DNA of 45,458 nt from a virus (lineage: Duplodnaviria; Caudoviricetes): positions 1-45,458 of IMG/VR virus record IMGVR_UViG_3300032239_001406. One strand, 5' to 3'. This document shows positions 6,450 to 45,118 of this stretch, piece after piece; position 1 is the first letter of the stretch; each line of letters begins with the position of its first letter. A program made the position numbers and the translations under genes. The notes beneath the pieces were generated by a model. It was given only the letters and a program-made list of their open reading frames with translations. It was not told where the DNA came from and searched no databases.

Positions 6450-6457
6450 ATATTTAT
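6450..6457 (+). promoter_or_regulatory. Putative late promoter ATATTTAT
   Basis: Intergenic, upstream of 6479. Confidence 0.65.
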
Positions 6458-8859: not shown

Positions 8860-9630
8860 ATGGCAAAAAATCCACTAGACGATTTATTAAAAGATGAAAC
8901 CGTTGCTCTTACCAAACGAGGTACTGTGCGTAAACGTAAACCAAAAGAATCAATTCAGTATTTTACAAGTGATACTGAAGAAGCAATTTTAGAATATTTA
9001 AGAACTAAAAATTCTGCAAAACGAAATAAGATATTTAATGAAAGAATTAATTACGCGTTTCATAAGTTGGCTGAAAATATCATCCATACTTTTAAGTTTT
9101 ATTATACGGAAGTAAATACTATTGATGAATTAAAACACGAAGTAGTAGCATTTTTACTTGAAAAATTACACTTATATAAGCAAGAAAAGGGTAAAGCATA
9201 CTCGTATTTTGGTACAATTGCTAAGCGTTATCTAATTTTATATAATAACGCTAACTATAAGAAGTTAAAGGAAAAAGCTGATGTGGAAGCCGTAGACGAA
9301 GATAAAACAATATTCATTGATTTAGTTAATGAGGAACATAATAATATGCCGTTAAATAAATTTATAGATTTATTTGTAGGCCATATAGATAAAAATTTAT
9401 ACAAATATTTTCCTAAAGATGAAGACGCAAAAACCGCAGATGCTGTAGTTGAATTATTTAGACGTCGCGAAAGTTTAGATATTTTTAATAAAAAAGGTAT
9501 ATACATTTATATTAGAGAAATAACAGACCAACCAACACCACAGATTACTAAGATAATTAAAAAGTTAAAAACTATATATAAAGAGTTGCTTTCTCAATAT
9601 CTTGAACATGATAGGTTACTTACTAACTAA
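8860..9630 (+). CDS. Phage sigma factor (T4 gp55-like late sigma)
   Basis: YFTSDTEEAILEY, FHKLAENII, DELKHEVVAFLLEKLHLYKQEKGKAYSYFGTIAKRYLI resembles sigma region 2; sits at the head of the structural module. Confidence 0.7.
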   Translation: MAKNPLDDLLKDETVALTKRGTVRKRKPKESIQYFTSDTEEAILEYLRTKNSAKRNKIFNERINYAFHKLAENIIHTFKFYYTEVNTIDELKHEVVAFLLEKLHLYKQEKGKAYSYFGTIAKRYLILYNNANYKKLKEKADVEAVDEDKTIFIDLVNEEHNNMPLNKFIDLFVGHIDKNLYKYFPKDEDAKTADAVVELFRRRESLDIFNKKGIYIYIREITDQPTPQITKIIKKLKTIYKELLSQYLEHDRLLTN

Positions 9631-14540: not shown

Positions 14541-14548
14541 ATATTTAT
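14541..14548 (+). promoter_or_regulatory. Putative late promoter ATATTTAT
   Basis: Intergenic, 4 nt before ATG 14553. Confidence 0.65.
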
Positions 14549-14552
14549 ATAT

Positions 14553-15014
14553 ATGAACATCGCAACTTTTAGAAAATTAATACGAGAAGAGGTAGCTAAG
14601 GCACTCCGTGAGGAATTACCTACTATCCTTAACGAATCTATTAAAGCTCCCACAAAACAAGTGGCACCTAAACGTTCATCAATTTCAGATTTGATGGAAG
14701 GTCGCCCAGAAAAACATACTGATTTTCAAACAACCGGAAATCCAATGTTAGATCTATTAAATGAAACCCGTGTTCAGATGACTACTCAAAATGAAGAATG
14801 GCCATCTATGGGTAATTATGATTCAAGTGCCATTAATAGCTACCGAGCAGAAATGATGGGTGCTTTTGGTGGTGGTGGCGCTCCAACAGTACAATCAGTA
14901 GATCAAATGGTACAAACAGCAAGACCAGCATCCGATGTAACACAAGTTCAAATTAACGCAGTTCCCGATTTTAGTAAAATGATGGGTGCTTTAAAAGAAA
15001 AAGGTAAATTATAA
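14553..15014 (+). CDS. Hypothetical protein with KLIREE leader
   Basis: MNIATFRKLIREEVAKALREELPTILNES. Confidence 0.75.
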   Translation: MNIATFRKLIREEVAKALREELPTILNESIKAPTKQVAPKRSSISDLMEGRPEKHTDFQTTGNPMLDLLNETRVQMTTQNEEWPSMGNYDSSAINSYRAEMMGAFGGGGAPTVQSVDQMVQTARPASDVTQVQINAVPDFSKMMGALKEKGKL

Positions 15015-21800: not shown

Positions 21801-24572
21801 AGTTATCATGTATTTGCTTTATCATATGGTGTAAATAATTCTGGTAGTGCCGGTGATACTACTTATTATGCTTTATTAAATGAACCAAATGTAGGAGCTA
21901 TTACTACAGTAAATGATAAGGTAAGAGTTGTTGATCAACATATAATAACAGGAAGTACATTATCTCCTTTTATTACCATTACTCAACCACAATTAAATCC
22001 CTTTACTCCAGATTTACCTTATGTAGATGTAAGTTTATCTCCACAAAATTCTATTGATTATGATATTATCAATCAATTAGGATATTGGAATATTGATGAC
22101 TATATAGGTGATCCTTTAGATGCAAGAAGTACTTTTTATCAAAGACTTGCACAATTAAGAAATTACTATTTTAAAAAATATATTCAAAAATATAGCGTAA
22201 TAGACATTATGCGTTTATTAGGTTATTTTGATAACTCATTATTCAAAATGATTAAGGATTGGGTTCCTGGACGTGCTAGTTTAGCATCTGGAGTTATAAT
22301 TCGTCCACATATCCTTGAAAGAGTTAAAATGCAGAGATTTGAACCTGACTTTTACACAGGAAGTTATTATACAGGGGCAATTCCAATGGAAAAAATTTCT
22401 GCTAGTTATAGTTATCAAGAAGATGGAATTACATTTAACTATAATTATACAACAGCAGCACCAAATGTTCCAACTACAAATTCTGTAACATCAACGTTTA
22501 CAACTGCTTCGGGAATTTATGTTTATAATGTAAATGACCAAATGTCTCCATATAATGGTACTTATGGTGGAAGCCAAATATCAGTTTACCATTTACCTAC
22601 TTCAAGTATGGTAATGGAACTTAACAACTTAGATTTTCTTGATATGCCTGTTGTAGATCAAGTTCCAACAGCTGTTACTTATTCTGTTTTACCTTTTTTA
22701 CCTACATTAAACACAGTAGAAAATGATAGAAAAAGTAATAAAAAATTAGATGTAGATTATTCATCTAATCCTAACGTAGCAGTAAACAACTATTATATCA
22801 CTCAAAGATATGATGGTGGTTTAACAGGTTCAACTTCTGCTCCAGCTGATTCTCAATTAGCATTATCTTTATCTCAACAATCATCTTCATTCTTAAACGC
22901 ACCCGTTCAAGATAGTAACTATACAATGAAACCATTAATTGATTCAAGATATAATGGTATTAAATTAATAGCAAGACAATATAACACTTATTCTGTTGGA
23001 GATATATCATATGGTAGCTCACCTGTTATTAGTAAAAATTCAATTTATTTTGCCTACTTTAAAGAAGTAGTAGGTACAGGTTCATGTATGGCTATAACTT
23101 CTTCAACTCTTCCTTATATTAGTAATGTTTATACAAAGTATTTAATTGATGCTCAATCAAATGTACTTGAATTAACAAAACAAAATAAAAACGTATTTTC
23201 AATACAAGAAATATTTAATGATCAACAAGCCGTTATTTCATTATTTAACAACCAACAACCATCAAATCAAATTTTCTTAGATGGTTTAAAAAATATATAT
23301 GCTGGTGGATTTAGATATACTCCTATATTATATAATCCTTATGGTGAATCAACATTAAGCTACGCACTTACTGCCTCAGTAGTCCAAACAATTCCTGCCG
23401 CTGGTGAGGGTGGAATGTATAATGCTTCCCAAGCATCATCAGTATGTGTTATTTCTAATAGTCCGGGAATAACATCTAGTGTATATAATTATGGATATAC
23501 AACATATCCTTATCCTGGAGGATATACTAATGTAAATGCTCAAGTTTATCCTACTTTCTCAGTACAAAGAACAGGAGATTTAGCAACTACTTATATTGAT
23601 AAAGCAATAAACGTATATGTTGCTTTTACTGGTAGTCTTAATTTTTCTGCTAAATTTTCAACAACTCAATATGGTGATCAACCATTTATTAATGTTTCTA
23701 CAAATTATAAATTAGCAAACTTTGTATCAAAATCTAGCATAACAGAAGATGATGGTGCTTATGCTTATGGACAATTTTATGGTGAAGCTCTAATTACTAT
23801 TCCTGCATATACCTATGAAGTTACTTTTCAGGGAACTGCAATTTCTATATATGCCAATAACGGATATGGTTATAATGGTGGTACTTTATTTTATCAGGGA
23901 TATGTAAATGTAGGAAGTTTCCCTCGTTCTTCAAGTTTTTACAATGGTGGTGCTGGTAATGCCTATGCTATTACTTCACAATCTACTTCTACAATTACTA
24001 ATATTATATCAGGAGCTATAGACCCGGGATATAACAATGGGGCTGCTTTCTTTATAAGAGATACAGGTTCATTTAATGTTTTAACTGGTTCTGTTTCTAT
24101 GTCTTACTGGTATGGAGAATTTTTCCAATCTGAATCTTCAGCAGCTATTGCTGGTGGTTATGAAAGAATAGAAGAAGTATATAGTATTAAAAAAGGAGAC
24201 TTGTTTAGATTTTATAATAAAGAAAGTGGACAATTTGATCAATCTTTTGAAAGAGAAGTTAAAGATATTTTTATTCCTTCTCAAACATCTATTTTAAACG
24301 GTGGGAAACCTATGACTATTGAATTTAATAATCAAGTTGATCCTCGTTCATGTCAAGACTGGTCAACTGCTGCAGATAATAACACTGCACATCAAATTAA
24401 TAAATTCATCATAATGAGAAAACTTCCCGATGAAACAAATATTACACTTAATTATCAAAAACAACCAGGTTTAACCTCAGATGGTATAATTATACCAGCG
24501 GATGCCCCTGCAAGCTTAAGAGATGAAGCAGGTAACATTGTAAAACAACTTAAAGCACAAAACTTAATTTAG
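18867..24572 (+). CDS. Very large baseplate/tail structural protein (1901 aa)
   Basis: YKRLYHNLPLLLKAKGT..GLRALMNCFGIP..LRIDEYGG (baseplate wedge/P2 gpI-like), LamG-like FTGSFQDLRYW, FKMIKDWVPGRASLASGVIIRPHILER. Confidence 0.75.
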   Translation: MENISVQDINYVAVPENQEYTPKDDSILNSVFIIKNFGYKETDYIENYVYSPSNELLASNYNFTNYSVELTYEGSTTFNKLNLSPETDVKAQGINQGTVNSIYYFYRKLLGSSSNNKFLLKTISSDRTELRVVLLSVSVDDLQTSFIAWSNEVNSRSYYSDFVLNFGNNNTLIGVNIAYETAQVPTLLIKLYEPLPSNYNINDSFWLVEEISDPITYAVTIEQEFINVIESNQLRGPNITIDVDEKPNLSTPPITLASLRSTEVTSSLQQLISLFDETSAEINIEYEMSSGSTTWTAFENFVHFSSAQERLTNFRYKLSLIETYQAEINTLNSVGSVPYISESKFSLQGKLDEVIKNFDNYEYFLYYASASSAWPKINNSQPYQLYPISDPVALTWFGDTTYGSTYYGGQILSASVYDSNNPNYVWNTMPTYVTTDPQNAIIQLFISMLGQHYDYLWTYIKAITDIQIADNRLVHGISKDLVSTALQSFGIKLYSNNRNNEDIYTAFLGVTPSGSLIPSTGSLLITNYVTASNQTTPDSDLVAEGYKRLYHNLPLLLKAKGTYNGLRALMNCFGIPPTLLRIDEYGGVNKDAAQVQQYFERFAFQTDFQGYGNINVPWLPSMAQFIDTGNPNVMPDAIEFRLKTPGIPSSDIIEPVFQVGANTNFRFGIQLAYSQSYNNYVSGTITSPASPYYNQRLGGNFQEYGLMKLVMSGSQGYCYSAPIYLPFFNSGWWSILLYRQNGAADNISDNTYWVVAKNSIYQGEDGSTVGFQASSSIYVMGAISSSYNNSWNYYNPTPVVSASLIPLDAYLGGTNSNGVLAPNGVAFTGSFQDLRYWRNELGLESFNKHVLNPMSIQNNEYSGSDDSYNDLVFRLALGNDLMTVPNGLAFTGSSYGLDPYGNAYYVTASYTASAAVLQSIHPAITGTVATTASFIIPYNPSSYDIDMYGVYRYDLTLSGSAFKYNGSYYSGSYYTGSTSYHVFALSYGVNNSGSAGDTTYYALLNEPNVGAITTVNDKVRVVDQHIITGSTLSPFITITQPQLNPFTPDLPYVDVSLSPQNSIDYDIINQLGYWNIDDYIGDPLDARSTFYQRLAQLRNYYFKKYIQKYSVIDIMRLLGYFDNSLFKMIKDWVPGRASLASGVIIRPHILERVKMQRFEPDFYTGSYYTGAIPMEKISASYSYQEDGITFNYNYTTAAPNVPTTNSVTSTFTTASGIYVYNVNDQMSPYNGTYGGSQISVYHLPTSSMVMELNNLDFLDMPVVDQVPTAVTYSVLPFLPTLNTVENDRKSNKKLDVDYSSNPNVAVNNYYITQRYDGGLTGSTSAPADSQLALSLSQQSSSFLNAPVQDSNYTMKPLIDSRYNGIKLIARQYNTYSVGDISYGSSPVISKNSIYFAYFKEVVGTGSCMAITSSTLPYISNVYTKYLIDAQSNVLELTKQNKNVFSIQEIFNDQQAVISLFNNQQPSNQIFLDGLKNIYAGGFRYTPILYNPYGESTLSYALTASVVQTIPAAGEGGMYNASQASSVCVISNSPGITSSVYNYGYTTYPYPGGYTNVNAQVYPTFSVQRTGDLATTYIDKAINVYVAFTGSLNFSAKFSTTQYGDQPFINVSTNYKLANFVSKSSITEDDGAYAYGQFYGEALITIPAYTYEVTFQGTAISIYANNGYGYNGGTLFYQGYVNVGSFPRSSSFYNGGAGNAYAITSQSTSTITNIISGAIDPGYNNGAAFFIRDTGSFNVLTGSVSMSYWYGEFFQSESSAAIAGGYERIEEVYSIKKGDLFRFYNKESGQFDQSFEREVKDIFIPSQTSILNGGKPMTIEFNNQVDPRSCQDWSTAADNNTAHQINKFIIMRKLPDETNITLNYQKQPGLTSDGIIIPADAPASLRDEAGNIVKQLKAQNLI

Positions 24573-33420: not shown

Positions 33421-33471
33421 ATATTTATTGGTGTATCTCCTTGGGAGATCACCAATTTTTATTTATCTTCA
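33421..33471 (+). promoter_or_regulatory. Composite element: ATATTTAT, a hairpin with T tract, and a weak host-type promoter
   Basis: ATATTTAT 33421-33428; ATTGGTG-T-ATCTCC-TTG-GGAGAT-CACCAAT 33427-33456 then TTTT; CTTG(33440)-N20-TATCTTCA(33464). Confidence 0.6.
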
Positions 33472-33477
33472 CGCATC

Positions 33478-34218
33478 ATGAAACTAAAAGTAATTAAGGA
33501 AGCACCAAAAGATTTAAAAGCAGTATTAATTGCTGGTCCATCTAATGCAGGCAAGTCGCAATTTGTTAAATCGGTTATTCCTACTGAATATCAAAAATAT
33601 GTTTTAAATCCTGATAAATTTTACGAACCCGAATTAGCTAAAGTTGGTCAAGGTTCTATGGATATGAAGGATTTTACACCTGATCAACTATCAGCAGCCG
33701 CTAAAGCTCAGGCACAAGCGGTAAAACAATATAGATCTGAATTAGAAAAAGCAATTGGTGAAAAACCAGTTATTTTAGATATTACGGGTGGTAGCTATAA
33801 AAAAGTAGCAGAAACTAAAGCAAAATTAGAAAATCAAGGATATGATGTAATGATGATTTTATTATATGCATCTCCATATACCACTTTATCTCGTAACCTT
33901 AAAAGAGATAGATCATTAGACCCAGGTATTGTGTTACGTAATTGGGAGGATGTAATCAAAAATGCTGAACAATACGAACAACTTTTTGGTGCTGATAATT
34001 TTGCTTTTATAGATAATGACCCTGAGGGTGCTAATAAAAGTTTTGATTTAGCTGATGTTGAATCACTATTTGAAAAATCTAAAATTTGGGCTCTAATTTC
34101 TGATGAAGATAAATTAAAAATAGAAGCACGTATTAAAGAACTTATAGATAGAACTGAAGATGCTAATTTTGTAGCATTTGATGAATTAGCAACCAAATTA
34201 AAAGGATTTTTAAAGTAA
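33478..34218 (+). CDS. P-loop kinase (zeta-toxin/AAA_33-like)
   Basis: IAGPSNAGKS, LNPDKFYE, VILDITG, LSRNLKRDR. Confidence 0.8.
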   Translation: MKLKVIKEAPKDLKAVLIAGPSNAGKSQFVKSVIPTEYQKYVLNPDKFYEPELAKVGQGSMDMKDFTPDQLSAAAKAQAQAVKQYRSELEKAIGEKPVILDITGGSYKKVAETKAKLENQGYDVMMILLYASPYTTLSRNLKRDRSLDPGIVLRNWEDVIKNAEQYEQLFGADNFAFIDNDPEGANKSFDLADVESLFEKSKIWALISDEDKLKIEARIKELIDRTEDANFVAFDELATKLKGFLK

Positions 34219-35117
34219 TGGCTAATATATATTTTGACATGGATGGGGTATTAGTTGACTACTTTGGTGGATTAAAAGATACTGCTAAAAAATTAGGTGT
34301 AGCTGAGGATGATAATAAAGCTATTTGGGATGAAATTAATAAAAATCCTGTTGAATGGTGGGCTAACTTAAATCCAATTCCCGATGGCATGAAATTATTT
34401 AATGCTGTAAAATCTAAAGAACCATCTATATTATCTTCAGCAGGTGCTAAACAAGAAACAAAACAAGGTAAATTAGCTTGGCTAAAAAAGAATGGTTTAT
34501 CTCCTTATTTAAAAGAAATTGTATTTGTAAATAATAAATCAGCAAAAAAGAAGTATGCTCAGGATGGTGACATATTAATTGATGATAGAAAAGATAATGT
34601 TGCTGATTGGGAAATGGCTGGTGGACACGGATATGTATTTAATAATAATTCAGGACAAATCTTACAAAAATTAAAATCTGTGAAAGAAAATTATTGGAAA
34701 AATTATTTAAGTAAAAAACGTTTACAAGAAAATATTCTTAAAGAGTATACCCCCGACTTTTTATTTACCTTAAAAGATTTTGTAAATTTTGCTTCCCAAC
34801 AACTTGGGTTAGATGATGTTCCCAAAATTCAAGTTTTAAATTCTTCTAGATTTACTAAAGCTAATAAAAGTTTTGGCGGATATGTTCCCGAAACTAATAA
34901 AATTTCTATTGTAATTAGAGGAAGAAATTTAGCTGATATATTAAGAACATTAGGTCATGAACTAGTTCATGCTAAACAAATGAAAGAAAAAAAATTATCT
35001 CCACATTCCGGCGAAACAGGTTCTCCTGTAGAAAATGAAGCAAATGCTAAAGCAGGTATATTAATGAGAGATTATGGTAAGAAAAACCCCAAAATTTACA
35101 ACCAAATAGAGTTATGA
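34218..35117 (+). CDS. HAD 5'(3')-deoxyribonucleotidase-like domain fused to a HExxH zinc metallopeptidase-like domain
   Basis: IYFDMDGVL, ILSS, GK..W, LIDDR; then SFGGY, LRTLGHELVH, ENEANA. Confidence 0.8.
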   Translation: MANIYFDMDGVLVDYFGGLKDTAKKLGVAEDDNKAIWDEINKNPVEWWANLNPIPDGMKLFNAVKSKEPSILSSAGAKQETKQGKLAWLKKNGLSPYLKEIVFVNNKSAKKKYAQDGDILIDDRKDNVADWEMAGGHGYVFNNNSGQILQKLKSVKENYWKNYLSKKRLQENILKEYTPDFLFTLKDFVNFASQQLGLDDVPKIQVLNSSRFTKANKSFGGYVPETNKISIVIRGRNLADILRTLGHELVHAKQMKEKKLSPHSGETGSPVENEANAKAGILMRDYGKKNPKIYNQIEL

Positions 35118-35629
35118 TAAATTTAAAAGAATTAATTGAAGAAGAAGGCATAACATCATATCAAATTTATTGCGATATGGATGGTGTTATTGCTGATTTT
35201 GAAGCACGTTTTGATCATTTTTTCGGAATGTCTCCAAGTGAGTATGAAGCTAAAAACGGCCGAAGAGCATTTTGGAATCAAATTGATAACAATATAGGAG
35301 TTAGTTTTTGGGTTGGTATCCCTTGGATGCCAGACGGACATCAACTTTGGGATTATATTAAAAAATATAACCCAATTTTATTATCATCACCATCAACATC
35401 AGAATCAAGCCGTATAGGTAAACACTTATGGGTAAAAAAATATTTACCTGGTACTAAATTGATTTTAGCGTTTCCTGATAAAAAAGCAAACTATTCGGGT
35501 GAAGGAAAAATATTAATAGATGATAGATTAGAACCAAATATCGAAATGTGGAGAAGTAAAGGAGGAATTGGTATCCATCACACAAGTGCCAGCGACACTA
35601 TTTCGCAACTTAAAGAATTAGGTTTATGA
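35114..35629 (+). CDS. HAD 5'(3')-deoxyribonucleotidase-like protein (paralog of the previous gene)
   Basis: IYCDMDGVIADF, ILLSSP, GKHLW, ILIDDR, WRSKGGIGI. Confidence 0.85.
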   Translation: MINLKELIEEEGITSYQIYCDMDGVIADFEARFDHFFGMSPSEYEAKNGRRAFWNQIDNNIGVSFWVGIPWMPDGHQLWDYIKKYNPILLSSPSTSESSRIGKHLWVKKYLPGTKLILAFPDKKANYSGEGKILIDDRLEPNIEMWRSKGGIGIHHTSASDTISQLKELGL

Positions 35630-36198
35630 GTGAATCACAATTAAAAAGAGAATTCTCTCAACGCGATGTAAAGCGTATGAGGGATTTGATTACCGGAAAC
35701 TTTGGTGATAGAACACAAGTTCAGGTAGGTTATGAAAAACAAAGCCAAGATCATCAAGAAGGTGATGTGTGGGAAGTTGATGGTAAAGTTTGGACTATTA
35801 AAAACGGTATCAAGCAAACAGTTACTAAGTATGATAACTTAAAACGCATGGTTACCATGCCTTTAACTTGTCCTAATTGTGGCCGTCATATGAAAGTACA
35901 TGAATACAATAAAAAGATGTGGGCAATCCATAAAACATGTTTTGATTGTGTAATTGAATACGAAACTAAGTTACGTCAAGAAGGTAAATTTGAAGCATAC
36001 CAAAAGAACATAATGAATTTAAATAAAGACGCTTTATTGGATGAAACGTTAGAAGCTATTGATGATTGGGCAAGCATAACAAGCACATTCGTTAATGAAG
36101 CTGGTGATGTTGAATCTTGGGGTGGTGGTGCCGTTAGTGTAGAAGAAGTACAAACTTTAAAAGAACAAATTAAAGAATTAAAGAAACGATCTGTTTAG
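35626..36198 (+). CDS. Zn-binding hypothetical protein
   Basis: EGDVWE..GKVWTIKNGIKQ, CPNC...CFDC. Confidence 0.7.
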   Translation: MSESQLKREFSQRDVKRMRDLITGNFGDRTQVQVGYEKQSQDHQEGDVWEVDGKVWTIKNGIKQTVTKYDNLKRMVTMPLTCPNCGRHMKVHEYNKKMWAIHKTCFDCVIEYETKLRQEGKFEAYQKNIMNLNKDALLDETLEAIDDWASITSTFVNEAGDVESWGGGAVSVEEVQTLKEQIKELKKRSV

Positions 36199-36199
36199 A

Positions 36200-36207
36200 A
36201 TATTTAT
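36200..36207 (+). promoter_or_regulatory. Putative late promoter ATATTTAT
   Basis: Intergenic, 4 nt before ATG 36212. Confidence 0.6.
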
Positions 36208-36211
36208 TGCC

Positions 36212-36505
36212 ATGAACGATAATATTTACACTGTTTTGATGACTGTTATTACAGTATTAGGTAGCGCTGCGGCTTTTCGTTTTTATGAAAAAAAATCAAT
36301 GCGCAAAGAACGTGATGATGAATTTATTCGTCATGACTGTAAAGATAGAATATCTAAACTAGAAGCATTACTTGAACGTTCAGCAGCCGAAAAAGATGAG
36401 TTACGAATTATGGTATTAGGACTTACTAAAGAAGTGGCAGCTTTAACTGTTAAGGTTGAATTCTTAACTGCCGAAAATAATAAACTCGAAAGAGCATTAA
36501 GATAA
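36212..36505 (+). CDS. Membrane-anchored coiled-coil protein (spanin- or holin-like?)
   Basis: N-terminal transmembrane segment TVLMTVITVLGSAAAF, then a leucine heptad. Confidence 0.6.
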   Translation: MNDNIYTVLMTVITVLGSAAAFRFYEKKSMRKERDDEFIRHDCKDRISKLEALLERSAAEKDELRIMVLGLTKEVAALTVKVEFLTAENNKLERALR

Positions 36506-36529
36506 TTAAATAATTTAAATATTTTTCAT

Positions 36530-36537
36530 ATATTTAT
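36530..36537 (+). promoter_or_regulatory. Putative late promoter ATATTTAT
   Basis: Intergenic, upstream of 36568. Confidence 0.7.
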
Positions 36538-36567
36538 ATAGAGATAATTCTATTTAAAATATATAAT

Positions 36568-37230
36568 ATGCCCTATACATCAGTCGGTAAATGCGTTTAC
36601 AAAAAAGCAGAAGACGGTAAACGTGGCGAAAAAGTAGGATGCACAAAAGGTGCAATTAAAGACTACTTAGCCGCATTATACGCTTCAGATAAAAACGAAG
36701 CAAAATTAGCACACAAAGAAATTAAAGAAGCACTTCAAGGTGACGTTGACCCAACAACATCTGCTCTTAATATTGATGATCAATTAGGTACATTCTTTAT
36801 AGTACAAAAACCAACAAAAGATTCAACTGTTGAAAATATAGTAGCTGAAGGTGATTTATTTACCGCTGCTAATATGTTTAAGCGTGGTTTAGATTTTGAT
36901 AATGTGTTTGGTTTGTATAAAACTGCTGAAAAGGCTCAAAAAGTTGGTGAATCATTAATTAAAGAAATGAGAAACCAGATGAGAGAAAATCTTAAATTAG
37001 GTGAAGATAAAGTATCTGAACTTCAACAAGAAATTGATGATACTAAAGTAGAAATTGAACATCATATTCAATCAGCTATGACTGAACCTGGTACTCGTGA
37101 TGCACGTTTTGCTGATGCTGAAAGATTATTAGATGATCTTAAAGTAAAAGAAGCTATGTTAGCTAAATTAAAGGGTGCATTGGAAACAGAAGTAAAAAAA
37201 TTAGACGAAGCAGAAAAAACTAAAAAATAA
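36568..37230 (+). CDS. Hypothetical protein with small N-terminal Cys domain and coiled coil
   Basis: MPY..GKCVYKK..KVGC..YLAALYA, helical C-terminus. Confidence 0.7.
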   Translation: MPYTSVGKCVYKKAEDGKRGEKVGCTKGAIKDYLAALYASDKNEAKLAHKEIKEALQGDVDPTTSALNIDDQLGTFFIVQKPTKDSTVENIVAEGDLFTAANMFKRGLDFDNVFGLYKTAEKAQKVGESLIKEMRNQMRENLKLGEDKVSELQQEIDDTKVEIEHHIQSAMTEPGTRDARFADAERLLDDLKVKEAMLAKLKGALETEVKKLDEAEKTKK

Positions 37231-37610
37231 TGAATCCATTAGCTGCATTTCTTTCAATATTGTTTGAAGCAAGAAAACAAGCACATATCTATCATTTACA
37301 AGTTAAAGGATTAGGTTCATATGCCGCTCACAAAGCGTTAAATGAATTCTATGATGAACTTTTAGAATTAATTGATGGTTTAGCTGAATCATCTCAAGGA
37401 AAATATGGTATAATCACTGGTTATACAAATGCTTTTGAAGTAAAGGATCTTAATAATATTCAAGATGCTTTATTATTTATTCAAGAATTAGCTATTATAG
37501 TTGAAACAGAAAGAACAACAATTCCTCAAGATACGTACATTCAAAATCAAATAGATGAGATTGTACAATTATTATATTCAACTGTTTATAAGCTTCAAAA
37601 CTTACAATAA
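37230..37610 (+). CDS. Ferritin/Dps-like four-helix protein
   Basis: HIYHLQVKG..SYAAHKALNEFYDELLELIDGLAE...QNQIDEI...YKL. Confidence 0.75.
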   Translation: MNPLAAFLSILFEARKQAHIYHLQVKGLGSYAAHKALNEFYDELLELIDGLAESSQGKYGIITGYTNAFEVKDLNNIQDALLFIQELAIIVETERTTIPQDTYIQNQIDEIVQLLYSTVYKLQNLQ

Positions 37611-38386
37611 TGTCTTTAAACTTAAAGTTATTAATTAGAGAATCTATTGAACGTCTTTTAGAAGAAAATGTTAAATTTGCCGAAGGTGATAAAGTAAAAA
37701 CTACCGATGGAAAAGAAGGTACAATAACTTTAGCTAAACATCCTTTTTATGCTATTACATTAGATGATGGCGCTACTAAATCATATCATTTTTCTGATTT
37801 GATTAAAGGTGTTCAAGAAAAAATGGAATATAAAGGCGACTTAAATGAAGTATCTCCTTCATTAGCTTTCCATATCAAAAATGGTTTAAGTTTATTTGAA
37901 AACGTGTTTCGCCCTGAATCAAAAGCTTATTTTGATTTATTTACCGAAGCAAGAAAATTATATAAACAAGGATTACTAAAATTAACAACAGAAGAAATTG
38001 AATTACTTGAATCAGGTATTGGTGAAGCAGTAATTTTAGAAAACAAAACAATACATTTGGGTTTACCATTTTTAGGCGACCCTGAATTTTTAACTGAAGA
38101 AGAAAAGAAAAAAGATCCCCCAATTGGCAAACCAAAACGTGGTGGTTCTAAAAAATTCTATGTTTACGTTAAAAATCCAAAAACAAAGAAAATTAAAAAA
38201 GTATCATTCGGTGATACAACTGGGTTACGTGCAAAATTAAATAATCCTAAAGCAAGAAAAGCATTTGCTGCTCGACACAAATGCGCTCAAAAGAAAGATA
38301 GAACAAAAGCATCATATTGGTCATGTAGATTACCAAGATATGCAAAACTATTAGGTTTTAAAACATCATTTAGTGGATACTGGTAA
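37610..38386 (+). CDS. Multidomain protein: leader, KOW/SH3-like domain, helical domain, basic C-terminal Cys/His domain
   Basis: KLLIRESIERLLEE; FAEGDKVKT..GKEGTI; KKFYVYVKNPKTKKIKKVSFG..AFAARHKC..YWSC. Confidence 0.7.
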   Translation: MSLNLKLLIRESIERLLEENVKFAEGDKVKTTDGKEGTITLAKHPFYAITLDDGATKSYHFSDLIKGVQEKMEYKGDLNEVSPSLAFHIKNGLSLFENVFRPESKAYFDLFTEARKLYKQGLLKLTTEEIELLESGIGEAVILENKTIHLGLPFLGDPEFLTEEEKKKDPPIGKPKRGGSKKFYVYVKNPKTKKIKKVSFGDTTGLRAKLNNPKARKAFAARHKCAQKKDRTKASYWSCRLPRYAKLLGFKTSFSGYW

Positions 38387-38642
38387 ACCATACATCGACT
38401 TAGAAGTCACAGACAAGTATATTATAAGAGAGTTCAATGAGGGTATAGACCCCATTGAACTTCTTTGGCATCGTGATGATGAAGATCGCTTAATTGAAAT
38501 AATAGGAGACACAGATTGGCAAATACAACTTGAAAATCAATTGCCTGCCTCCATGAATAAGCCCATATTTATACCAAAACATGAATGGCACCGCACCATT
38601 AAGGGAACGGGCAAGTTGCGTTTAAAAATATATAAATTATGA
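38373..38642 (+). CDS. Small cupin-like protein
   Basis: LLWHRDDEDR, WQIQLENQLP, IFIPKHEWHRTIKG. Confidence 0.7.
   Translation: MDTGKPYIDLEVTDKYIIREFNEGIDPIELLWHRDDEDRLIEIIGDTDWQIQLENQLPASMNKPIFIPKHEWHRTIKGTGKLRLKIYKL
38565..38572 (+). promoter_or_regulatory. Possible intragenic late promoter for the lysis genes
   Basis: ATATTTAT about 66 nt upstream of the holin-like start. Confidence 0.35.
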
Positions 38643-38902
38643 GCTTCATTAAAGACTTGTTTAAAGACAACAACGACATCAACGAAAAATCAGTAGTTGG
38701 GTTCCTATCATTTTTTTGTATGGTAATTGCCCTAATTGTAGACCTAGTTACAGGTGCAATGGGTAAAGAAATGCCAATCAATCAATTTATTTTTGATGGC
38801 TTTTTAGTAGTTACCTTAGGTGCTTTCGGTATCGCTTCTGTTGATAAATTTATTAATAGAAAGAACGAAATCGAACAATTAAAACTTGATAACGATAAAT
38901 AA
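38639..38902 (+). CDS. Holin-like protein with two transmembrane segments
   Basis: Two hydrophobic segments and a charged C-terminal tail, directly upstream of the endolysin. Confidence 0.6.
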   Translation: MSFIKDLFKDNNDINEKSVVGFLSFFCMVIALIVDLVTGAMGKEMPINQFIFDGFLVVTLGAFGIASVDKFINRKNEIEQLKLDNDK

Positions 38903-38909
38903 TTAAAGT

Positions 38910-39509
38910 ATGGACTTAAATAAATTAAAAGGCCACGTGCCTGATACTGTTATCTCTCAGATTCCTGACGTGATGACTAAATTTAATATTGATAATCCAT
39001 TACGTTTAGCACACTTTTTAGCTCAATGTGGGCATGAAAGTGGTGGTTTTCGTTTAACTAAAGAAAACTTAAACTATAGTGCTAAAGGTTTAATGGGTAT
39101 ATTTAAAAAATATTTTCCTTCCGAAGCAAAAGCAAATGAATATGCAAGAAAACCAGAAAAAATTGCTAATTTGGTATATAGTAACAGAATGGGTAATGGT
39201 CCTGAATCAACAGGTGACGGAGCTAAGTTTTGTGGTCGCGGCTATATTCAATTAACTGGTAAAGATAACTATACAGCATTCGGTAAATCAATTAATGAAG
39301 ATATTGCTTCTAACCCACAGTTAGTTGCTGACAAATATGCTTTATTATCAGCTGCTTGGTTTTTTACAAAAAACAAATTACATTTAATAGCTGATGAAGG
39401 TGCTTCTGAATTGACTGTTACTAAGATAACTAAACGTGTTAATGGTGGTACAATCGGTTTACCTGATCGTATTAAACATTTTAAAGAATACTACGCTTTA
39501 TTAGCATAA
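38910..39509 (+). CDS. Endolysin, glycoside hydrolase family 19
   Basis: RLAHFLAQCGHESGGF, ENLNYS, GRGYIQLTGKDNY, SAAWFF, TKRVNGG.IGLPDR. Confidence 0.92.
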   Translation: MDLNKLKGHVPDTVISQIPDVMTKFNIDNPLRLAHFLAQCGHESGGFRLTKENLNYSAKGLMGIFKKYFPSEAKANEYARKPEKIANLVYSNRMGNGPESTGDGAKFCGRGYIQLTGKDNYTAFGKSINEDIASNPQLVADKYALLSAAWFFTKNKLHLIADEGASELTVTKITKRVNGGTIGLPDRIKHFKEYYALLA

Positions 39510-39510
39510 T

Positions 39511-39518
39511 ATATTTAT
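39511..39518 (+). promoter_or_regulatory. Putative late promoter ATATTTAT
   Basis: Intergenic, upstream of 39529. Confidence 0.7.
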
Positions 39519-39528
39519 ATACCGTAGA

Positions 39529-39915
39529 ATGATAAAACTAGCTGATATATTATGTGAAGTTCTTAACGAGGACAGATGCCAAAGAATAGCAAACAGACGC
39601 TATGACAAACCATCAGCATATAAATCAGGAGCAATTGTTCGTTGCCGTAAAGGTAATATTTGGAAAGGTATTAAAAATGAAGTAGCTTTACAAGAAAAAG
39701 AAACTTTACGTAAGTGGTTTGATAGACAAGGTGCACCCGGAAGTGGCGGAGGTTGGGTAGATTGTAATACTTGTCGTGAAGTAGATGGTAAAACAAAATG
39801 TAAATCATGTGGACGTCAAAAAGGAGAAAAGCGTGCTAAGTATCCATCATGTCGCCCCACACCCTCACAATGTAAAAGACCCGGCAAAGGTAAAACTTGG
39901 GGTAAAACAAAATAA
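39529..39915 (+). CDS. Basic Cys-rich small-domain protein with leader
   Basis: MIKLADILCEVLNE; DRC..PSAYKSGAIVRCRKG; LRKWF..WVDCNTC..CGR..KYPSCRP. Confidence 0.75.
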   Translation: MIKLADILCEVLNEDRCQRIANRRYDKPSAYKSGAIVRCRKGNIWKGIKNEVALQEKETLRKWFDRQGAPGSGGGWVDCNTCREVDGKTKCKSCGRQKGEKRAKYPSCRPTPSQCKRPGKGKTWGKTK

Positions 39916-39918
39916 AAC

Positions 39919-40482
39919 ATGAAACTAAAAGACATACTATTAGAAGTAGAATCAGAACAAAAAGTAGATGTTACCGTTGACGCAATTGGTCAAGAGTTAA
40001 AAAAATTAGCTGTAGGCGTTGAAGATGCCTTAGAAGATGCTGCAGAACAAAAAAGTGAAGCCGTATTAACATCTGCAAGTTTATTACTTGCACTTCCTAC
40101 TATGTTAGGATTAGTTGCTCGTGCCGGTAAAGCAGTAACATCTATAGTTCAAAAAACATTAGGTAAAAAACCAACTGACCAAAGTGGTACTGAAAAATAC
40201 TTCCAACAATTAGGTAGAGTAGCTGATGAATTACATCATTTATATATGAAACCAATTGAATTAGTTGTTAAAAAGTTTATTAAAGACCCTAAAAAAGCAC
40301 ATACTGTAGCAAGTGGTATATTCCATGTTATTGTAGCTGTAATGTGTGTTGCCTCTGGAGTTAGTGCTGTTAAAGCATTACAATCAAAAGAAATTTCAAT
40401 GGCTACTTTAGAATCAGCTTTATCAGCTGTTAAAGGTGGTGAAGTTAAAAATTATATGTCAAATTTATTAAAGTTAGCATAA
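39919..40482 (+). CDS. Helical protein with leader and two hydrophobic segments
   Basis: MKLKDILLE; [15 protein letters not shown]; [19 protein letters not shown]. Confidence 0.75.
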
Positions 40483-40483
40483 C

Positions 40484-41374
40484 ATGAAAATTAGAATTAA
40501 AAAAATTAATGAAGATCCAATAGGTAAACAAGATATTTTATCTCGTGATTTATATAAATTAAAAATCAATAAACATATTTCTGATGCTTTTCATGATAAA
40601 ATTCATAAATTAATTCGTATAGGTGATTTAGCTAAAGCTGAAGAACTTTTAAATCGTGTTAAACCAGGTAAAGATGATTTTATTAATGTAGAAGCATTAG
40701 ACCCAGTAGGAAAAGAAGATTCTGATATTAATAATGATGGTAAATCAGATAAAACAGATAAATATCTTCAAGCAAAAAGAGATGCTATTGCTAAAAATAT
40801 GAAAGAAGGTAAAAAGATTTGTGAAACATGTGGCGGTACAGGATATATGGAAGAATCATTATACGAAAGCAAAAAGATTTGTGAAACTTGTGGTGGTTCA
40901 GGATACATGGAAGAATCATTATATGAAGATCATGAAGTTGGAATGGCTATTAATTTGTTAGATGATATTATAATGAATGCTCAACAATTAAAAATGAAGT
41001 TAGGTGGAGAAGAAAGAAATATCCCCGGATGGATTCAAGATCATATTTCACAAGCACAAAATTATATTAACCAGGCAAATACTAATTTTCATGAAGATAA
41101 TGATGTTAGAAATGACAACACTATAACAGAAGATGAAATGTCTGCAGAAGATGAATTTAACCAACTTATGAAACATTATGATTGGTATTTTGAAATGAGT
41201 GATGATGATAGAGTATATGATAAAGGAAAAGCATTAAATCGTAAATTATATGATTTAGCTAAATTTATTGGGTCAGACAAAGCAATAAAAATATTTAACC
41301 AATATGCTCCTAAAGGCAGACCTGGTCAAGAACATTTTTCAAGAACTATTACATCAATTGATCAATTAAGATAA
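40484..41374 (+). CDS. Mosaic protein with EF-hand-like DxNNDG motif and duplicated CxxCxGxG
   Basis: [24 protein letters not shown]; KKICETCGG(T/S)GYMEESLYE twice; PGWIQDHIS. Confidence 0.75.
40811..40927 (+). repeat. 60-nt period tandem duplication (2 copies)
   Basis: aaaaagatttgtgaaac(a/t)tgtgg(c/t)ggt(a/t)caggata(t/c)atggaagaatcattata(c/t)gaa at 40811 and 40871. Confidence 0.95.
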
Positions 41375-42786
41375 TGAAATTTAAATTATCAAAAGAAAGT
41401 GTCCAAAAGTTACGCGGAATCGTAAGTAACGAAGCATCGGATTTTGTTCATGAACAAGCCGAAGAAGTTATTTCGTTTGAGTCTAACCCAATGGAATATA
41501 TTTTAAATAAGTATCCTTCATTAGAGGGTACGTTGCAAGATTTACTTACAGATCATTTCCGTGATTATGTTACGGGAATTTTTGTTGTGGCTCCTAAACC
41601 AACAACGTTTAAAGTTTTGTTACATAACGGACAAATGTTTTTTTTAATATATGGACCAAAATCATATATTGCTAAAGTAGTAGGAAAAACATATTACTTA
41701 CTTAATTTAAACGAAGAAGAAAGTGCAGTGTTAGCAATTGCTAATTTATTACAATTAGGTAGACCTCCAGGATCACAAGGTCCAGACGCTGAAACAAGTT
41801 CAGAAGCACCTACTAGTGATGAAGGTGGTGAAGAAGAAGCACCAGCAGAAGAAGAAGCACCCGCAGAAGAGGAACCAGTAACAGAATCTATAAAAAAAAA
41901 GATTAAGTTAATACTTAGAGAAACTCCTGAACAAATCCAACAGGATTTAGAACCTTTAGGATATAAAGAAAAAGATTTTAAAAAAATATCTGGTAAACAA
42001 GTTAAATTATTAGTACCAGGTAAAGAAAGAAAAGTAGTAGCTGATAAAATTGCTAAAAATCTTGGTTACAAACAAGATAAAGAAATTTCTACAAAACTTA
42101 TAGCGGATGATGGTACTGTTTTATTAGTTAAACCTGTTGAACAACAAGGTGATGCTACAGTTCATATTGAATTAGAAGCATTAGCTGGTTTATTAAAACA
42201 ACTAAAAGAATTAGGTTCAGCTAATATCAAAGTAGGAGGAAAAGTATATAAAGACATTACAGACGGGTATAAAGTACAAGGTACACCTAAAGCTGACTTA
42301 GCTTTAACTAACTCTAAAGGTACTCCTGTAATTTTTATATCACATAAAGATGGAGACTCAGCAAAAGATTTCCAACAATATGGGGGTGTTACAGCATATG
42401 CTGACAATCCTGAAGTTAAATCATTTGCTAAAGCAGTACTAAAAAAATCACCAGGTGGTGTAATGCCTCAAGGTGGTGGATTTAAAAGAAAAGTAAAAGA
42501 CGAAGAACTTATCCGTAAATCAATTTATGGTAAAGGATATGGTGGTGCTTTTAATGAGAATAATGTTCAAGTAGTATGTCAAGGACCTTTATATTTAGAA
42601 AAATCATCAGGTAACACATACGAATTAAAGAGTAATCACAATGTGTATAATGGTACTGTTCCCGGAGAAGGCTATACAGCATATCTTATGGCAACGTTCC
42701 GTAGAGGAAGAAATGATTTAGGCGTTAAAAGTTGTAGAATGGGTATTTATCCAGAAGCAACAAGAAAAACAGCACAAAATATATAA
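41374..42786 (+). CDS. Two-part protein: N-terminal domain, acidic linker, C-terminal restriction-endonuclease-like (PD-(D/E)xK) domain
   Basis: PKPTTFKVLLHNGQ.F; EEEAPA repeats; TPKADLAL...FISHKDG..FQQYGG. Confidence 0.6.
   Translation: MKFKLSKESVQKLRGIVSNEASDFVHEQAEEVISFESNPMEYILNKYPSLEGTLQDLLTDHFRDYVTGIFVVAPKPTTFKVLLHNGQMFFLIYGPKSYIAKVVGKTYYLLNLNEEESAVLAIANLLQLGRPPGSQGPDAETSSEAPTSDEGGEEEAPAEEEAPAEEEPVTESIKKKIKLILRETPEQIQQDLEPLGYKEKDFKKISGKQVKLLVPGKERKVVADKIAKNLGYKQDKEISTKLIADDGTVLLVKPVEQQGDATVHIELEALAGLLKQLKELGSANIKVGGKVYKDITDGYKVQGTPKADLALTNSKGTPVIFISHKDGDSAKDFQQYGGVTAYADNPEVKSFAKAVLKKSPGGVMPQGGGFKRKVKDEELIRKSIYGKGYGGAFNENNVQVVCQGPLYLEKSSGNTYELKSNHNVYNGTVPGEGYTAYLMATFRRGRNDLGVKSCRMGIYPEATRKTAQNI
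41830..41880 (+). repeat. 18-nt repeat encoding an EEEAPA linker
   Basis: gaagaagaagcaccagca gaagaagaagcacccgca gaagaggaacca. Confidence 0.85.
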
Positions 42787-42787
42787 C

Positions 42788-42895
42788 ATGGGAACAAAAG
42801 CAAAAAAACCAAGACCAATGAGGTCTAAAAAATCAGGAGTTAAAAAATTAGCTCTAGTAAAAAGTAATTTAGAAATTTTAAATAAATTAAAATAA
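42788..42895 (+). CDS. 35-aa basic peptide absent from the ORF track
   Basis: MGTKAKKPRPMRSKKSGVKKLALVKSNLEILNKLK; fills the gap exactly and is TAATG-coupled to 42895. Confidence 0.7.
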   Translation: MGTKAKKPRPMRSKKSGVKKLALVKSNLEILNKLK

Positions 42896-43602
42896 TGAAA
42901 CAGCAACTTAATGAAATCCGCAGAATGCAAAAGTTAGCGGGAATTTTAGTTGAAAATGAATTAGATTTGGATGTTCCTGCTGCCACAATAGACATGAAAG
43001 TATTATCTAAATTTACAGAAAATGGAAAGTATGGTACTAATTCAAGTCAACATATTTTAACACTTAAAAAACCATCAGACGACTCTTTAACTGCAGCTAA
43101 AGACGCTTTAACTAAAATAAAAGAAATAAATAATTATTTAAAGCAAACTAATGGTGGAAGTAAATGGTTTTTAAGAGGAATTACTATGGGATATCAAAAT
43201 CCAAAAGCTATGGAAATAGCTAATGAACTTAAAAAACTACACCCATCAGGAGAGGTGAAAGCATTTAATAAAGATAATGTATTCTTTTACTTAAACCCAG
43301 AATCCACATTAAAAGAAGAACAAGATATTGATTATTTTAGTCCTGATAGAACTCGAGGAGGATATGAACATGCTCAATATTGGGATGATGCTAATAATGA
43401 ATTAGAGTTAGGATTTGATGAAGATCAAGATCTTTTAGATATAGCTAATAACGCTGATGAACCATGGCAGAGAGCTTTTGCTAATCAAGTAATTAAAAAT
43501 GCAAAAGCAAAAATTGATTCCTTTTTTGGGAGTGCAAGACAGGAATATCAACTTTTTAAAAATATAGTTAAAAAAGCATATGAAGATAACAATCCTTTTT
43601 AA
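42895..43602 (+). CDS. Hypothetical protein with LNE..RMQKLAGI leader
   Basis: MKQQLNEIRRMQKLAGILVENE; internal TLKEE. Confidence 0.75.
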   Translation: MKQQLNEIRRMQKLAGILVENELDLDVPAATIDMKVLSKFTENGKYGTNSSQHILTLKKPSDDSLTAAKDALTKIKEINNYLKQTNGGSKWFLRGITMGYQNPKAMEIANELKKLHPSGEVKAFNKDNVFFYLNPESTLKEEQDIDYFSPDRTRGGYEHAQYWDDANNELELGFDEDQDLLDIANNADEPWQRAFANQVIKNAKAKIDSFFGSARQEYQLFKNIVKKAYEDNNPF

Positions 43603-43723: not shown

Positions 43724-45118
43724 ATGAATAAAAAAATAGTAATCGTAGGTGCAGGTGTTGCAGGAATCAACGCTGCTACAAAGTTAGTTGATAATGGCTA
43801 TCCTGGTGAATTGATAACCATTATAGATAAAGGAAACGACCCACATAATCGTTTACCTGAAGAAGTAATGACTGGTATGTTAGGTGCTGGTGGTTGGAGT
43901 GATGGTAAATTAACTTACCATACTGCTATTGGTGGTCAATTAGCCAAATATTGTGGTGAAGAAAAAGCAATGGAGTTGATGAAACAAGTAGTAGATAACT
44001 TTACTCGTTTCCACCCTAAACCAGACGAAATATTCATGTCTGATCCTCAGGAAGAACCAGAATTTATTAAACCATATTTTGGTTTGAGAATGTTCCCTGT
44101 ATGGCACATTGGATCTAATTTCTTACATGAGATTGCTAAAACATGGTATCAATATTTGTTAGATAAAGGTGTTAGATTTAACTGGTTAGAACAAGTTGAT
44201 AGAATTGATTTTGAATACAAAGTAGTACATAGTCATACTTTAACTAAAGATGGACTTCATCATTTTGATGCTCGCTTTACCCACTATGATGAATTAATAT
44301 TCGCAGTAGGCAAATCAGGTATTGATTTTGCTCAAAAATTAGCTGATGATTATAAATTACCTAATGAACCTAAATCAGTACAAATTGGTGTTCGATTTGA
44401 AGCACCACAAAAATATTTTCAAAAACTAATTGATGTTAGTTATGATTTTAAATTATACCAAAAATTCGATAATGTATCTTTACGTTCATTCTGTACTAAT
44501 AACAATGCAGCTTATGTTGCTGTGGAAGAGACTTATGGGGATGTAAGTTATAATGGTCACGCTAAGAAAGGTGAAGAATTTAGAAACAATATGACCAATT
44601 TTGGTATATTGATGGAAATTAAGGGTATTGAAGACCCGTTTGCTTGGAGTAGAAATGTAGTTGATAAATGTAATTTTAGTGGTACAATTCCTAGGTTTGA
44701 AAATGATGGAATTAGTAATTTTAATTTTAGAGCAGGGTTATATTATTCACCAAACCAAACTAGAAAACCATCTAATACATCTGAAGGTAATGTAGTTACT
44801 TGTATTGAATTATTTTCTGGTTTAGATCAAGTTAGAAAAGCATTTGGTGGTTACTTTGAACATATCGAAAACTTTATTAATGATATGAATAATGTATTTA
44901 ACTTTGGTGATGATTGGGGTATGTACATTCCTGAGGTAAAATATCTTAGCCCTGAACCATTAGTTAATTATCATAATTTATCCTTAACAGAATACCCTAA
45001 TGTGTATTTCGTAGGTGATGCTTTATCAGCTCGTGGTATTACAGTATCAGGTGCTCATGGTATTTATGTTGCCGAAAAATTAATTCAACATAACCATCTT
45101 GTAGAATTAACTCAATAA
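43724..45118 (+). CDS. FAD-dependent oxidoreductase (HI0933-like/COG2509-like); start revised to ATG 43724
   Basis: IVIVGAGVAG, GAGGWSDGKL, HIGS, AVGKSG, IGVRFE, RSFCTN, NGHA, TNFGIL, YFVGD..ARGITVSGAHG. Confidence 0.88.
   Translation: MNKKIVIVGAGVAGINAATKLVDNGYPGELITIIDKGNDPHNRLPEEVMTGMLGAGGWSDGKLTYHTAIGGQLAKYCGEEKAMELMKQVVDNFTRFHPKPDEIFMSDPQEEPEFIKPYFGLRMFPVWHIGSNFLHEIAKTWYQYLLDKGVRFNWLEQVDRIDFEYKVVHSHTLTKDGLHHFDARFTHYDELIFAVGKSGIDFAQKLADDYKLPNEPKSVQIGVRFEAPQKYFQKLIDVSYDFKLYQKFDNVSLRSFCTNNNAAYVAVEETYGDVSYNGHAKKGEEFRNNMTNFGILMEIKGIEDPFAWSRNVVDKCNFSGTIPRFENDGISNFNFRAGLYYSPNQTRKPSNTSEGNVVTCIELFSGLDQVRKAFGGYFEHIENFINDMNNVFNFGDDWGMYIPEVKYLSPEPLVNYHNLSLTEYPNVYFVGDALSARGITVSGAHGIYVAEKLIQHNHLVELTQ

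Follow-up and report, generated by a model that had tools for sequence, protein, structure and literature searches.

A 45.5-kb fragment of viral DNA (IMG/VR record IMGVR_UViG_3300032239_001406, positions 1 to 45,458; hereafter the window) encodes proteins with unrelated bodies that begin with short leader peptides ending in glutamate. We consider it probable, at roughly 0.7, that these leaders act as capsid-targeting propeptides in the style of phage T4, trimmed by a gp21-type prohead protease, and that the proteins carrying them include polyproteins cut by a protease. At the level of sequence, this reading is carried by several distinct leader classes, the swapping of classes on one and the same body, joints inside proteins that fall at the same motif, and a gp21-type protease in relatives. 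In addition, the leader of one class (class B) matches the C-terminal tail of the scaffold protein in relatives, a link missed by an earlier interpretation made from the letters and open reading frames (ORFs) of this DNA (the sequence-only reading). That interpretation had proposed that a single leader directs a block of about 10 kb (33478..43602) into the head, and that several of the genes lie behind the motif ATATTTAT. Head targeting with gp21 trimming is upheld by the protease in relatives, the concentration of leaders among head genes, swapping, and conservation of the peptides, whereas the single leader, the whole block as cargo, the link to ATATTTAT, and the injection of the proteins with the DNA were overstated.

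We compared N termini across 115 loci from IMG/VR (35 from one search and the best 80 of 564 from another), three complete genomes, two partial ones, the cultured Flavobacterium phage vB_FspM_immuto_2-6A (Immutovirus, NC_055915; immuto below), and the window; one of the added genomes, G003, was used without its last 946 bases. Clustering on residues beyond position 25 sorted 2,854 proteins into 971 families. For held-out training, the 117 families with any match to a window protein were removed, and 843 body families were fitted. N termini that are alike across at least five unrelated families account for 3/55 proteins in the window, 17/233 in immuto, and 11/228, 11/240, and 15/222 in the complete genomes; the same comparison found none among shuffled or internal segments. 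A first, unpenalized mixture fit gave diffuse components only. An unsupervised fit then reached a log-likelihood of 659 on held-out N termini, versus 32 for shuffled N termini, and returned two motifs, K-L-x-D-I-L-K-E in about 31 families and E-I-K-R-M-Q-x-L-A in about 37. Seeded profiles on the held-out families define five classes. Motif and profile analysis of N termini, a check that the sequence-only reading had itself put forward, recovers leaders beyond shuffled controls.

All nine N termini quoted in that reading (14553, 33478, 35114, 37610, 39529, 39919, 40484, 41374, and 42895, each gene named by its first base) are present where it placed them, and eight of them form a short leader of the L/I-x-E type. 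The exception is 41374, rightly described as a looser match: [LIV]xE is missing from its first 25 residues, and its conserved Glu is E20, not E8. Held-out profiles score 42895 at 19.7, 14553 at 12.6, 39919 at 10.6, 39529 at 9.7, and 37610 at 7.0 (each P = 0.002 from 500 shuffles), with a weak score of 3.8 for 35114 (P = 0.008). A leader common to unrelated proteins is therefore supported beyond chance for five proteins strongly and one weakly, but not for 33478, 40484, and 41374 in these profiles. The leaders of 33478 and 40484 fit class E, a short K-I/L-R/K-I/V..E peptide carried by 18 proteins, of which 17 belong to block families; by its sequence distribution, this class is restricted to the lineage and has been swapped in among relatives. 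With classes A, B, D, and E, at least four leader classes occur in the window rather than one. A class C match in 34218 (score of 5.6) falls on the catalytic DxDGV motif and was discarded as a false positive.

The [LIV]-x-E ending does not distinguish leaders by itself. It is present in the first 25 residues of 10/16 block proteins and 16/39 other window proteins, which makes the bare motif nearly uninformative, and we rejected it as a leader mark. The exonuclease is among the 16. Of the 39 window genes outside the block, none but 14553 reaches a profile score of 3. Half of the block itself (8/16 genes: 34218, 35626, 36212, 36568, 37230, 38373, 38639, and 38910) has no N-terminal leader. A holin-like gene, an endolysin, and several families that never carry a leader lie within it, and to read the whole block as cargo overstates the case.

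Leaders are exchanged on the same bodies. Among distinct N termini, kinase homologs (33478) carry class D in eight cases, E in one, and none in one; 39919 homologs carry E in four, A in one, and D in one; 39529 homologs carry D in 24 and A in two, with two unscored; and 40484 homologs carry D in seven, C in eight, B in one, and E in two, with 22 unscored. Class E thus stands in for class D or A. Inspected by eye and without a count, most of the 81 homologs of the C-terminal module of 41374 begin with other Glu-ending leaders, among them a sixth, longer class. The same modules lie behind different Glu-ending leaders in Melnitz, a T4-like marine phage, and the 37610 and 39529 modules occur without a leader in small roseophages and a pelagiphage. 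No homolog scores for 35626 (45 distinct N termini), 36212 (11), 37230 (37), 38373 (27), or 38910 (20). In class B, codon identity is 0.81 at position 2 versus 0.58 at position 3, with the L, A, and G columns fixed by the way the sequences were chosen, and identity of the 30 nucleotides upstream of leaders is 0.34 to 0.41. The leaders are conserved as peptides rather than as DNA: their synonymous codons differ, and the DNA upstream shows no such conservation.

At a score of at least 5, and with gene categories assigned by homology to immuto, the four complete genomes have leaders on 9/30 head operon proteins, 1/100 tail and neck proteins, 5/135 replication, metabolism, and lysis proteins (four of the five being the terminase large subunit and one RecA), and 51/655 others. 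Leaders are thus not equally frequent among replication and tail proteins, an outcome that favors the sequence-only reading. Between the surroundings of the GIY-YIG and primase genes and the capsid gene, 47/145 genes are positive, compared with 19/775 elsewhere. Each genome has 14 to 19 proteins that score as tagged, and leaders occur on 150 body families overall. In immuto, 19/230 proteins score as leader bearing, a few of them likely false positives, and nearly all of these genes are annotated as hypothetical. The head operon proteins gp72, gp69, and gp67 bear the same leaders.

Further evidence comes from the head genes of relatives. An S77 protease, the gp21-like enzyme named as a check in the sequence-only reading, is found above the Pfam cutoff in 3/3 complete and 8/10 related records and is annotated in immuto. 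The capsid protein N terminus keeps L6/E8, L32/E34, L48/E50, and E59 invariant in 74/74 aligned sequences (of 120 homologs), and 114/120 homologs have [LIV]xE within the first 12 residues. With a class B profile built from N termini only (39 families), the scaffold C-terminal tail comes first among the 40,909 internal positions of immuto and is also the top internal match in the genomes G001 and G003. In other HK97-fold phages, the scaffold tail binds the shell. The class B motif also ends nonscaffold proteins (G001 135605, G002 98386 and 95654, G003 48533, and G004 23204), some of which start with a class A leader, and may serve there as a C-terminal tag. G003 has tandem gp23-type capsid genes at 60985 and 62727 that are about 80% identical, the second of which could be a vertex-type paralog. 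In G004, the span of the protease match (23315-23860) contains one TGA, probably upstream of the start since the ORF call is an intact 209-residue protein. In roseophage CRP-6 (L161:1468-2157), a protease-looking domain, presumably an XkdF-type head protease, follows the basic module known from the C terminus of 37610 in one fused protein; from its sequence, this fusion looks like a tie between the module and heads in an unrelated small phage.

Leader-bearing proteins likely include polyproteins with protease-cut joints, a feature absent from the sequence-only reading. For 389 leader-bearing proteins of 150 families, the sequence after the last [LIV]xE of the leader was located inside proteins of other families. 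[LIV]xE lies exactly in register at the projected joint in 19/42 cases, versus 0.94 expected, and in 16/38 once four rows from misstarted ORFs are removed. The P3 residue in the 150 leader families is L in 74, I in 60, and V in 16, with [LIV]xE itself a requirement for selection. Candidate joints in the window are L-K-E176 in 34218 (34737-34745), near L-N-E80 and L-T-E163 in 37610, L-Q-E56 in 39529, E128 and E148 in 40484, L-R-E183 in 41374 (41914-41922), and L-K-E141 in 42895 (43309-43317). At two of these joints, in 41374 and 42895, DNA homology to relatives breaks off. In locus L044, a class B leader is joined straight to the module after E141, and the DNA match begins with the joint's own first base, 43309. 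The match of the nearest locus, L042, to 41374 stops at 41912, at the E183 joint, with another module beyond; seven homologs of the 41374 module that align from the joint all keep L/I-x-E there. In eight relatives, the kinase and the 35114-type nucleotidase are fused at an L-N-E joint behind one class D leader.

The closest known counterpart is the T4 capsid-targeting sequence (CTS). T4 gp21 cleaves after L/I-X-E, and the first 10 residues of IPIII direct proteins to the head (PMC9026906); gp21 removes the CTS of IPI, IPII, IPIII, and Alt (PMC9026906, PMC9958956, PMC5694885, PMC3012670), and one review proposes the CTS as a general device of T4-like phages for loading varied proteins (PMC9026906). 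The leaders resemble the CTS in being short N-terminal peptides ending in L/I-x-E, on unrelated bodies and variable cargo, with a gp21 homolog in the T4-type heads of relatives. They differ in comprising at least six classes in the clade, of about 8 to 28 residues with one class longer, instead of one conserved 10-mer; in the 14 to 19 proteins per genome that score as tagged; in the class B copy of the scaffold C terminus, which also occurs as a C-terminal tail; and in polyprotein joints. The leader system would work like the CTS, but membership in the T4 CTS system is not established, because the window has no protease gene and packaging and cutting are predictions.

Other packaging systems fit less well. 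In the giant phages SPN3US, phiKZ, and 201phi2-1, a gp21-like protease cleaves many internal head proteins behind a motif with Glu (PMC10052503, PMC5694885). Their propeptides end in A/S-x-E and are mostly 111 to 254 residues long, with short swappable tags not described in the available portions of these papers; our leaders depart from this pattern, with 8 to 28 residues and with L, I, or V at P3 of capsid sites and joints. About 30 N-terminal residues direct P1 DarB into the capsid, but the Dar proteins share no consensus and belong to another phage group, and the available part of the source describes no Glu cut site (PMC9024508). The cytidylyltransferase/NMNAT block of T4-like cyanophages and Melnitz shares the NT5C module, the DxDGD unit, the 37610 and 38373 bodies, DUF5872, and Glu-ending leaders with the window. 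Its leaders are of a different type, with an aromatic residue near position 4, and are not interpreted as targeting tags in the available text of the reports (PMC3037559, PMC9602691, PMC10665884); the window leaders likewise differ from Kyanoviridae-type leaders. Immuto has the same gene order as the window, with a different cargo set and different leaders on several shared bodies. Mass spectrometry detected ORF154 (cytidylyltransferase) and ORF160 in S-CREM2 virions (PMC10665884, Table 3), and an NMNAT was detected in S-SCSM1 virions (PMC9602691). The ORF154 N terminus ends in L-T-E10, and one module occurs in both ORF160 and 39529 (57% identical; pairwise E = 1e-6). These virion data from distant phages lend the main reading indirect support.

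We propose the following sequence of events. The leader genes would be expressed late. The leader would then attach its protein to the inner shell or the core of the prohead. Class B would do so as a mimic of the scaffold tail; classes A and D might do so through a likeness to the N termini of the capsid protein and small core proteins. A gp21-type protease would cleave after the leader and at the internal joints, freeing single modules. Folded modules (kinase, nucleotidases, peptidase, and nuclease) and small basic peptides would remain with the DNA, and some would enter the host by ejection. Judging from the sequences, docking and cutting are probable, while the last step, retention of enzymes and ejection of some, falls slightly short of even odds.

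A number of results weigh against this interpretation. Three of the nine named leaders (33478, 40484, and 41374) have no held-out profile score. No protease, scaffold, or capsid gene was found in the window, which taken as a genome by itself (G000) is an estimated 27% complete. For the class B profile, other C-terminal tails outscore that of the scaffold in G002, where it comes third, and in G004, where it comes fourth. In each of the four genomes, the large subunit of terminase matches the class A profile, which therefore measures in part an amphipathic helix of generic kind; gp73-like proteins match the class D profile at an internal helix. Leaders are optional, with 13/19 (35114) and 39/51 (37610) distinct homolog N termini below threshold, some of them unmodeled variants. 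On the side of method, profile seeds were picked with immuto already inspected, the rows of the joint test depend on one another, and the complete genomes supplied families for profile training, which makes the leader counts in them circular in part (the window test is not). The module shared by ORF160 and 39529 spans 28 residues. Cytidylyltransferase was detected in S-SM1 but not S-PM2 or Syn9 virions (one of three phages; PMC3037559, Table S8). For S-CREM2 and S-SCSM1, the authors caution that nonstructural proteins may copurify (PMC10665884, PMC9602691). Our literature search, which covered few subscription journals, returned no paper on these leaders or on the immuto virion proteome and no virion or cleavage data for this clade; the accessible text of PMC3622015, PMC13326640, and PMC12880540 has nothing relevant to leaders.

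Among the alternatives, the strongest holds that the tags merely load filler into the prohead core, where most proteins are cut up and leave or stay as DNA-binding bits, with no effectors for the host. Many bodies are indeed low-complexity, acidic, or small and basic with several [LIV]xE sites, gp72, gp69, and gp67 of the head operon have the same leaders, and T4 gp22, gp67, and gp68 are degraded (PMC9958956). The kinase, nucleotidase, and nuclease modules, however, retain enzyme-type conserved residues and are bounded by joints, and the 46/55 class B body families that are singletons in this set suit variable cargo better than structure. We regard filler as improbable.

Less likely again is that the leaders send proteins to some destination other than the head, for example a membrane assembly site or the GroEL/GroES encoded by the phage, and that the terminal Glu is not a cut site. 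Immuto and G003 do encode GroEL/GroES, and class A resembles the terminase N terminus. According to the title of one study cited in PMC10052503, the N terminus of a T4 head protein reportedly directs proteins to GroEL. Such an address offers no account of L/I/V-x-E kept in register at internal joints, of the identity of class B with the scaffold tail, or of the scarcity of leaders in tail proteins. We give still less credence to the leaders as a by-product of gene shuffling or A-rich translation starts, that is, as shared 5' DNA cassettes without function as peptides. The AT-rich genome, the location of DNA crossovers at leader and joint sequences, and one class D position with the ATA codon in 18/18 Ile cases point that way, but several synonymous codons encode the conserved residues, identity within class B is higher at codon position 2 than at position 3, the upstream 30 nucleotides are poorly shared, and shuffled N termini yielded no motifs.

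The motif ATATTTAT (33421..33428, plus strand; also near 14541, 36200, 36530, and 39511) was rejected as a leader-specific signal, being about as common before tail genes. Of the nine named genes, only three (14553, 33478, and 39529) have a copy of their own, and copies also precede tail genes, the GT2 gene, and leaderless genes. TATTTAT plus one base occurs within 45 nucleotides upstream of 29/100 tail genes, 14/34 head and terminase genes, 13/46 leader genes, 9/125 replication genes, and 59/618 others. Since it is frequent at tail, head, and leader genes and rare at replication genes, ATATTTAT is likely a general late promoter. The sense-strand form, TATTTATA, occurs in the window at 6451, 9647, 14542, 17336, 24589, 29433, 31958, 36531, and 39512, and also in immuto and G001 to G003; it is the reverse complement of TATAAATA, which we take to be the T4 late promoter. 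ORF 8860-9630 has a weak sigma-factor match (NF008890, E = 7e-4) and could read the late promoter.

The leader-bearing and neighboring genes, all on the plus strand, are as follows. Outside the block, 14553 (class A leader, 14553..14636, an amphipathic helix with [LIV]xE at 12, 20, and 28) encodes a conserved protein of low complexity and lies upstream of the baseplate genes, with gp114 as its immuto counterpart. The block opens with a P-loop kinase-like protein (33478..34218; Pfam Zeta_toxin/AAA_33) with an eight-residue class E leader and no match found in PDB. It is followed by a leaderless fusion of an NT5C-type nucleotidase and an HEXXH metallopeptidase-like module (34218..35117) and by a 5'-3' deoxyribonucleotidase (35114..35629) with a D-like leader (E9/E10). 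Four genes within 35626..37610 are leaderless in the window: 35626 (a conserved Zn-ribbon-like protein), 36212 (a membrane/coiled-coil protein), 36568 (a coiled-coil protein with class A on 8/26 homolog N termini), and 37230 (ferritin-like DUF5856). The class A leader of 37610 (37610..38386) extends to E18/E19 and precedes three modules, the last a small, basic Cys/His unit that occurs tagless in small marine phages. Three untagged genes then lie within 38373..39509, namely 38373 (a small protein), 38639 (called a holin-like membrane protein from its hydrophobic segments and position before the endolysin), and 38910 (a GH19 endolysin).

In the second half, 39529 (39529..39915) joins a class D leader (to E14) to two basic, Cys-rich DUF5872 modules. 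The helical protein 39919 (39919..40482) has a class D leader (to E9) and two hydrophobic segments, and the atlas search found no family for it. The class E leader of 40484 (40484..41374) extends to E10 and is followed by a DxDGD unit, two CxxCxGxG repeats, and helical units. The repeats, a tandem pair of 20 residues each (40811-40927), both close with L-Y-E (128 and 148), such that the module is duplicated exactly between presumed cut sites. Behind its loose leader, 41374 (41374..42786) has a clade-wide N-terminal module, an acidic linker, and a C-terminal module that is exchanged for another in the nearest relative. This C-terminal module is probably restriction-endonuclease-like, given a PADLOC match to type II restriction endonucleases (E = 1.5e-5) and invariant K-x-D and S-H-K residues. 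A lead from the atlas stayed below threshold (0.89; 14% of members with R-HINP1I), neither Pfam nor PDB sequence scans gave a match, and the single-sequence fold of residues 184 to 470 was poor (predicted local distance difference test [pLDDT], 45.6). Finally, 42895 (42895..43602) has a class B leader (to E20) and two modules of no assigned function. At the end of the block lies a highly conserved FAD/NAD oxidoreductase (43724-45118), 73 to 83% identical across the 80 top loci out of 564. The idea that a class B gene has a fixed slot ahead of it was rejected, being true in 8/69 loci only.

The window is a fragment of an Immutovirus-like, T4-like myophage. Its GC content is 0.31, all its long ORFs lie on the plus strand, and it holds baseplate genes, a GIY-YIG nuclease, a primase, an exonuclease, and the leader block; its DNA was recovered again in contigs of public runs. 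Immuto, the closest cultured phage (primase, 44%; ORF 8860, 41%), shares this gene order and then continues with terminase, portal, the gp21 protease, the scaffold-like gp67, and the gp23 capsid protein. The host is probably a Flavobacterium-type bacterium, as judged solely by kinship with immuto. L042 (88.5% nucleotide identity over 3.3 kb) extends to terminase (about 3 kb) and portal (about 5 kb) past the gene matching the last window ORF. Elsewhere in immuto (67665-74128), an array of small early-type genes has a near-identical cassette upstream of each, a repeat at the DNA level in contrast to the peptide leaders.

The principle of such targeting is already known from T4, from which this clade departs in the multiplicity of leader classes, the scaffold-tail match, and the probable polyproteins made at joints. 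One review calls the placement of proteins in the scaffolding core of T4-type phages a continuing mystery (PMC9958956). A cargo leader that resembles the scaffold's own tail turns placement into a direct, testable docking hypothesis, and immuto is a cultured relative. Tentatively, and with less assurance than for ejection itself, the leaders may form a plug-in system throughout this large clade of aquatic T4-like phages: several address codes copied from docking peptides of head proteins (the scaffold tail being usable at either end), enzymes recruited by recombination at protease-site codons, and polyproteins cut into effectors injected before phage gene expression. If so, leader profiles would predict the injected proteome from sequence and would name the docking partner that is lacking for T4. 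Should the docking hypothesis hold true, the tags would be usable as tools to load proteins into capsids. The clade is widespread, with at least 8,000 close capsid-protein matches, and in that event dozens of hypothetical genes per genome would become candidate anti-host or counter-defense proteins of the first minute of infection.

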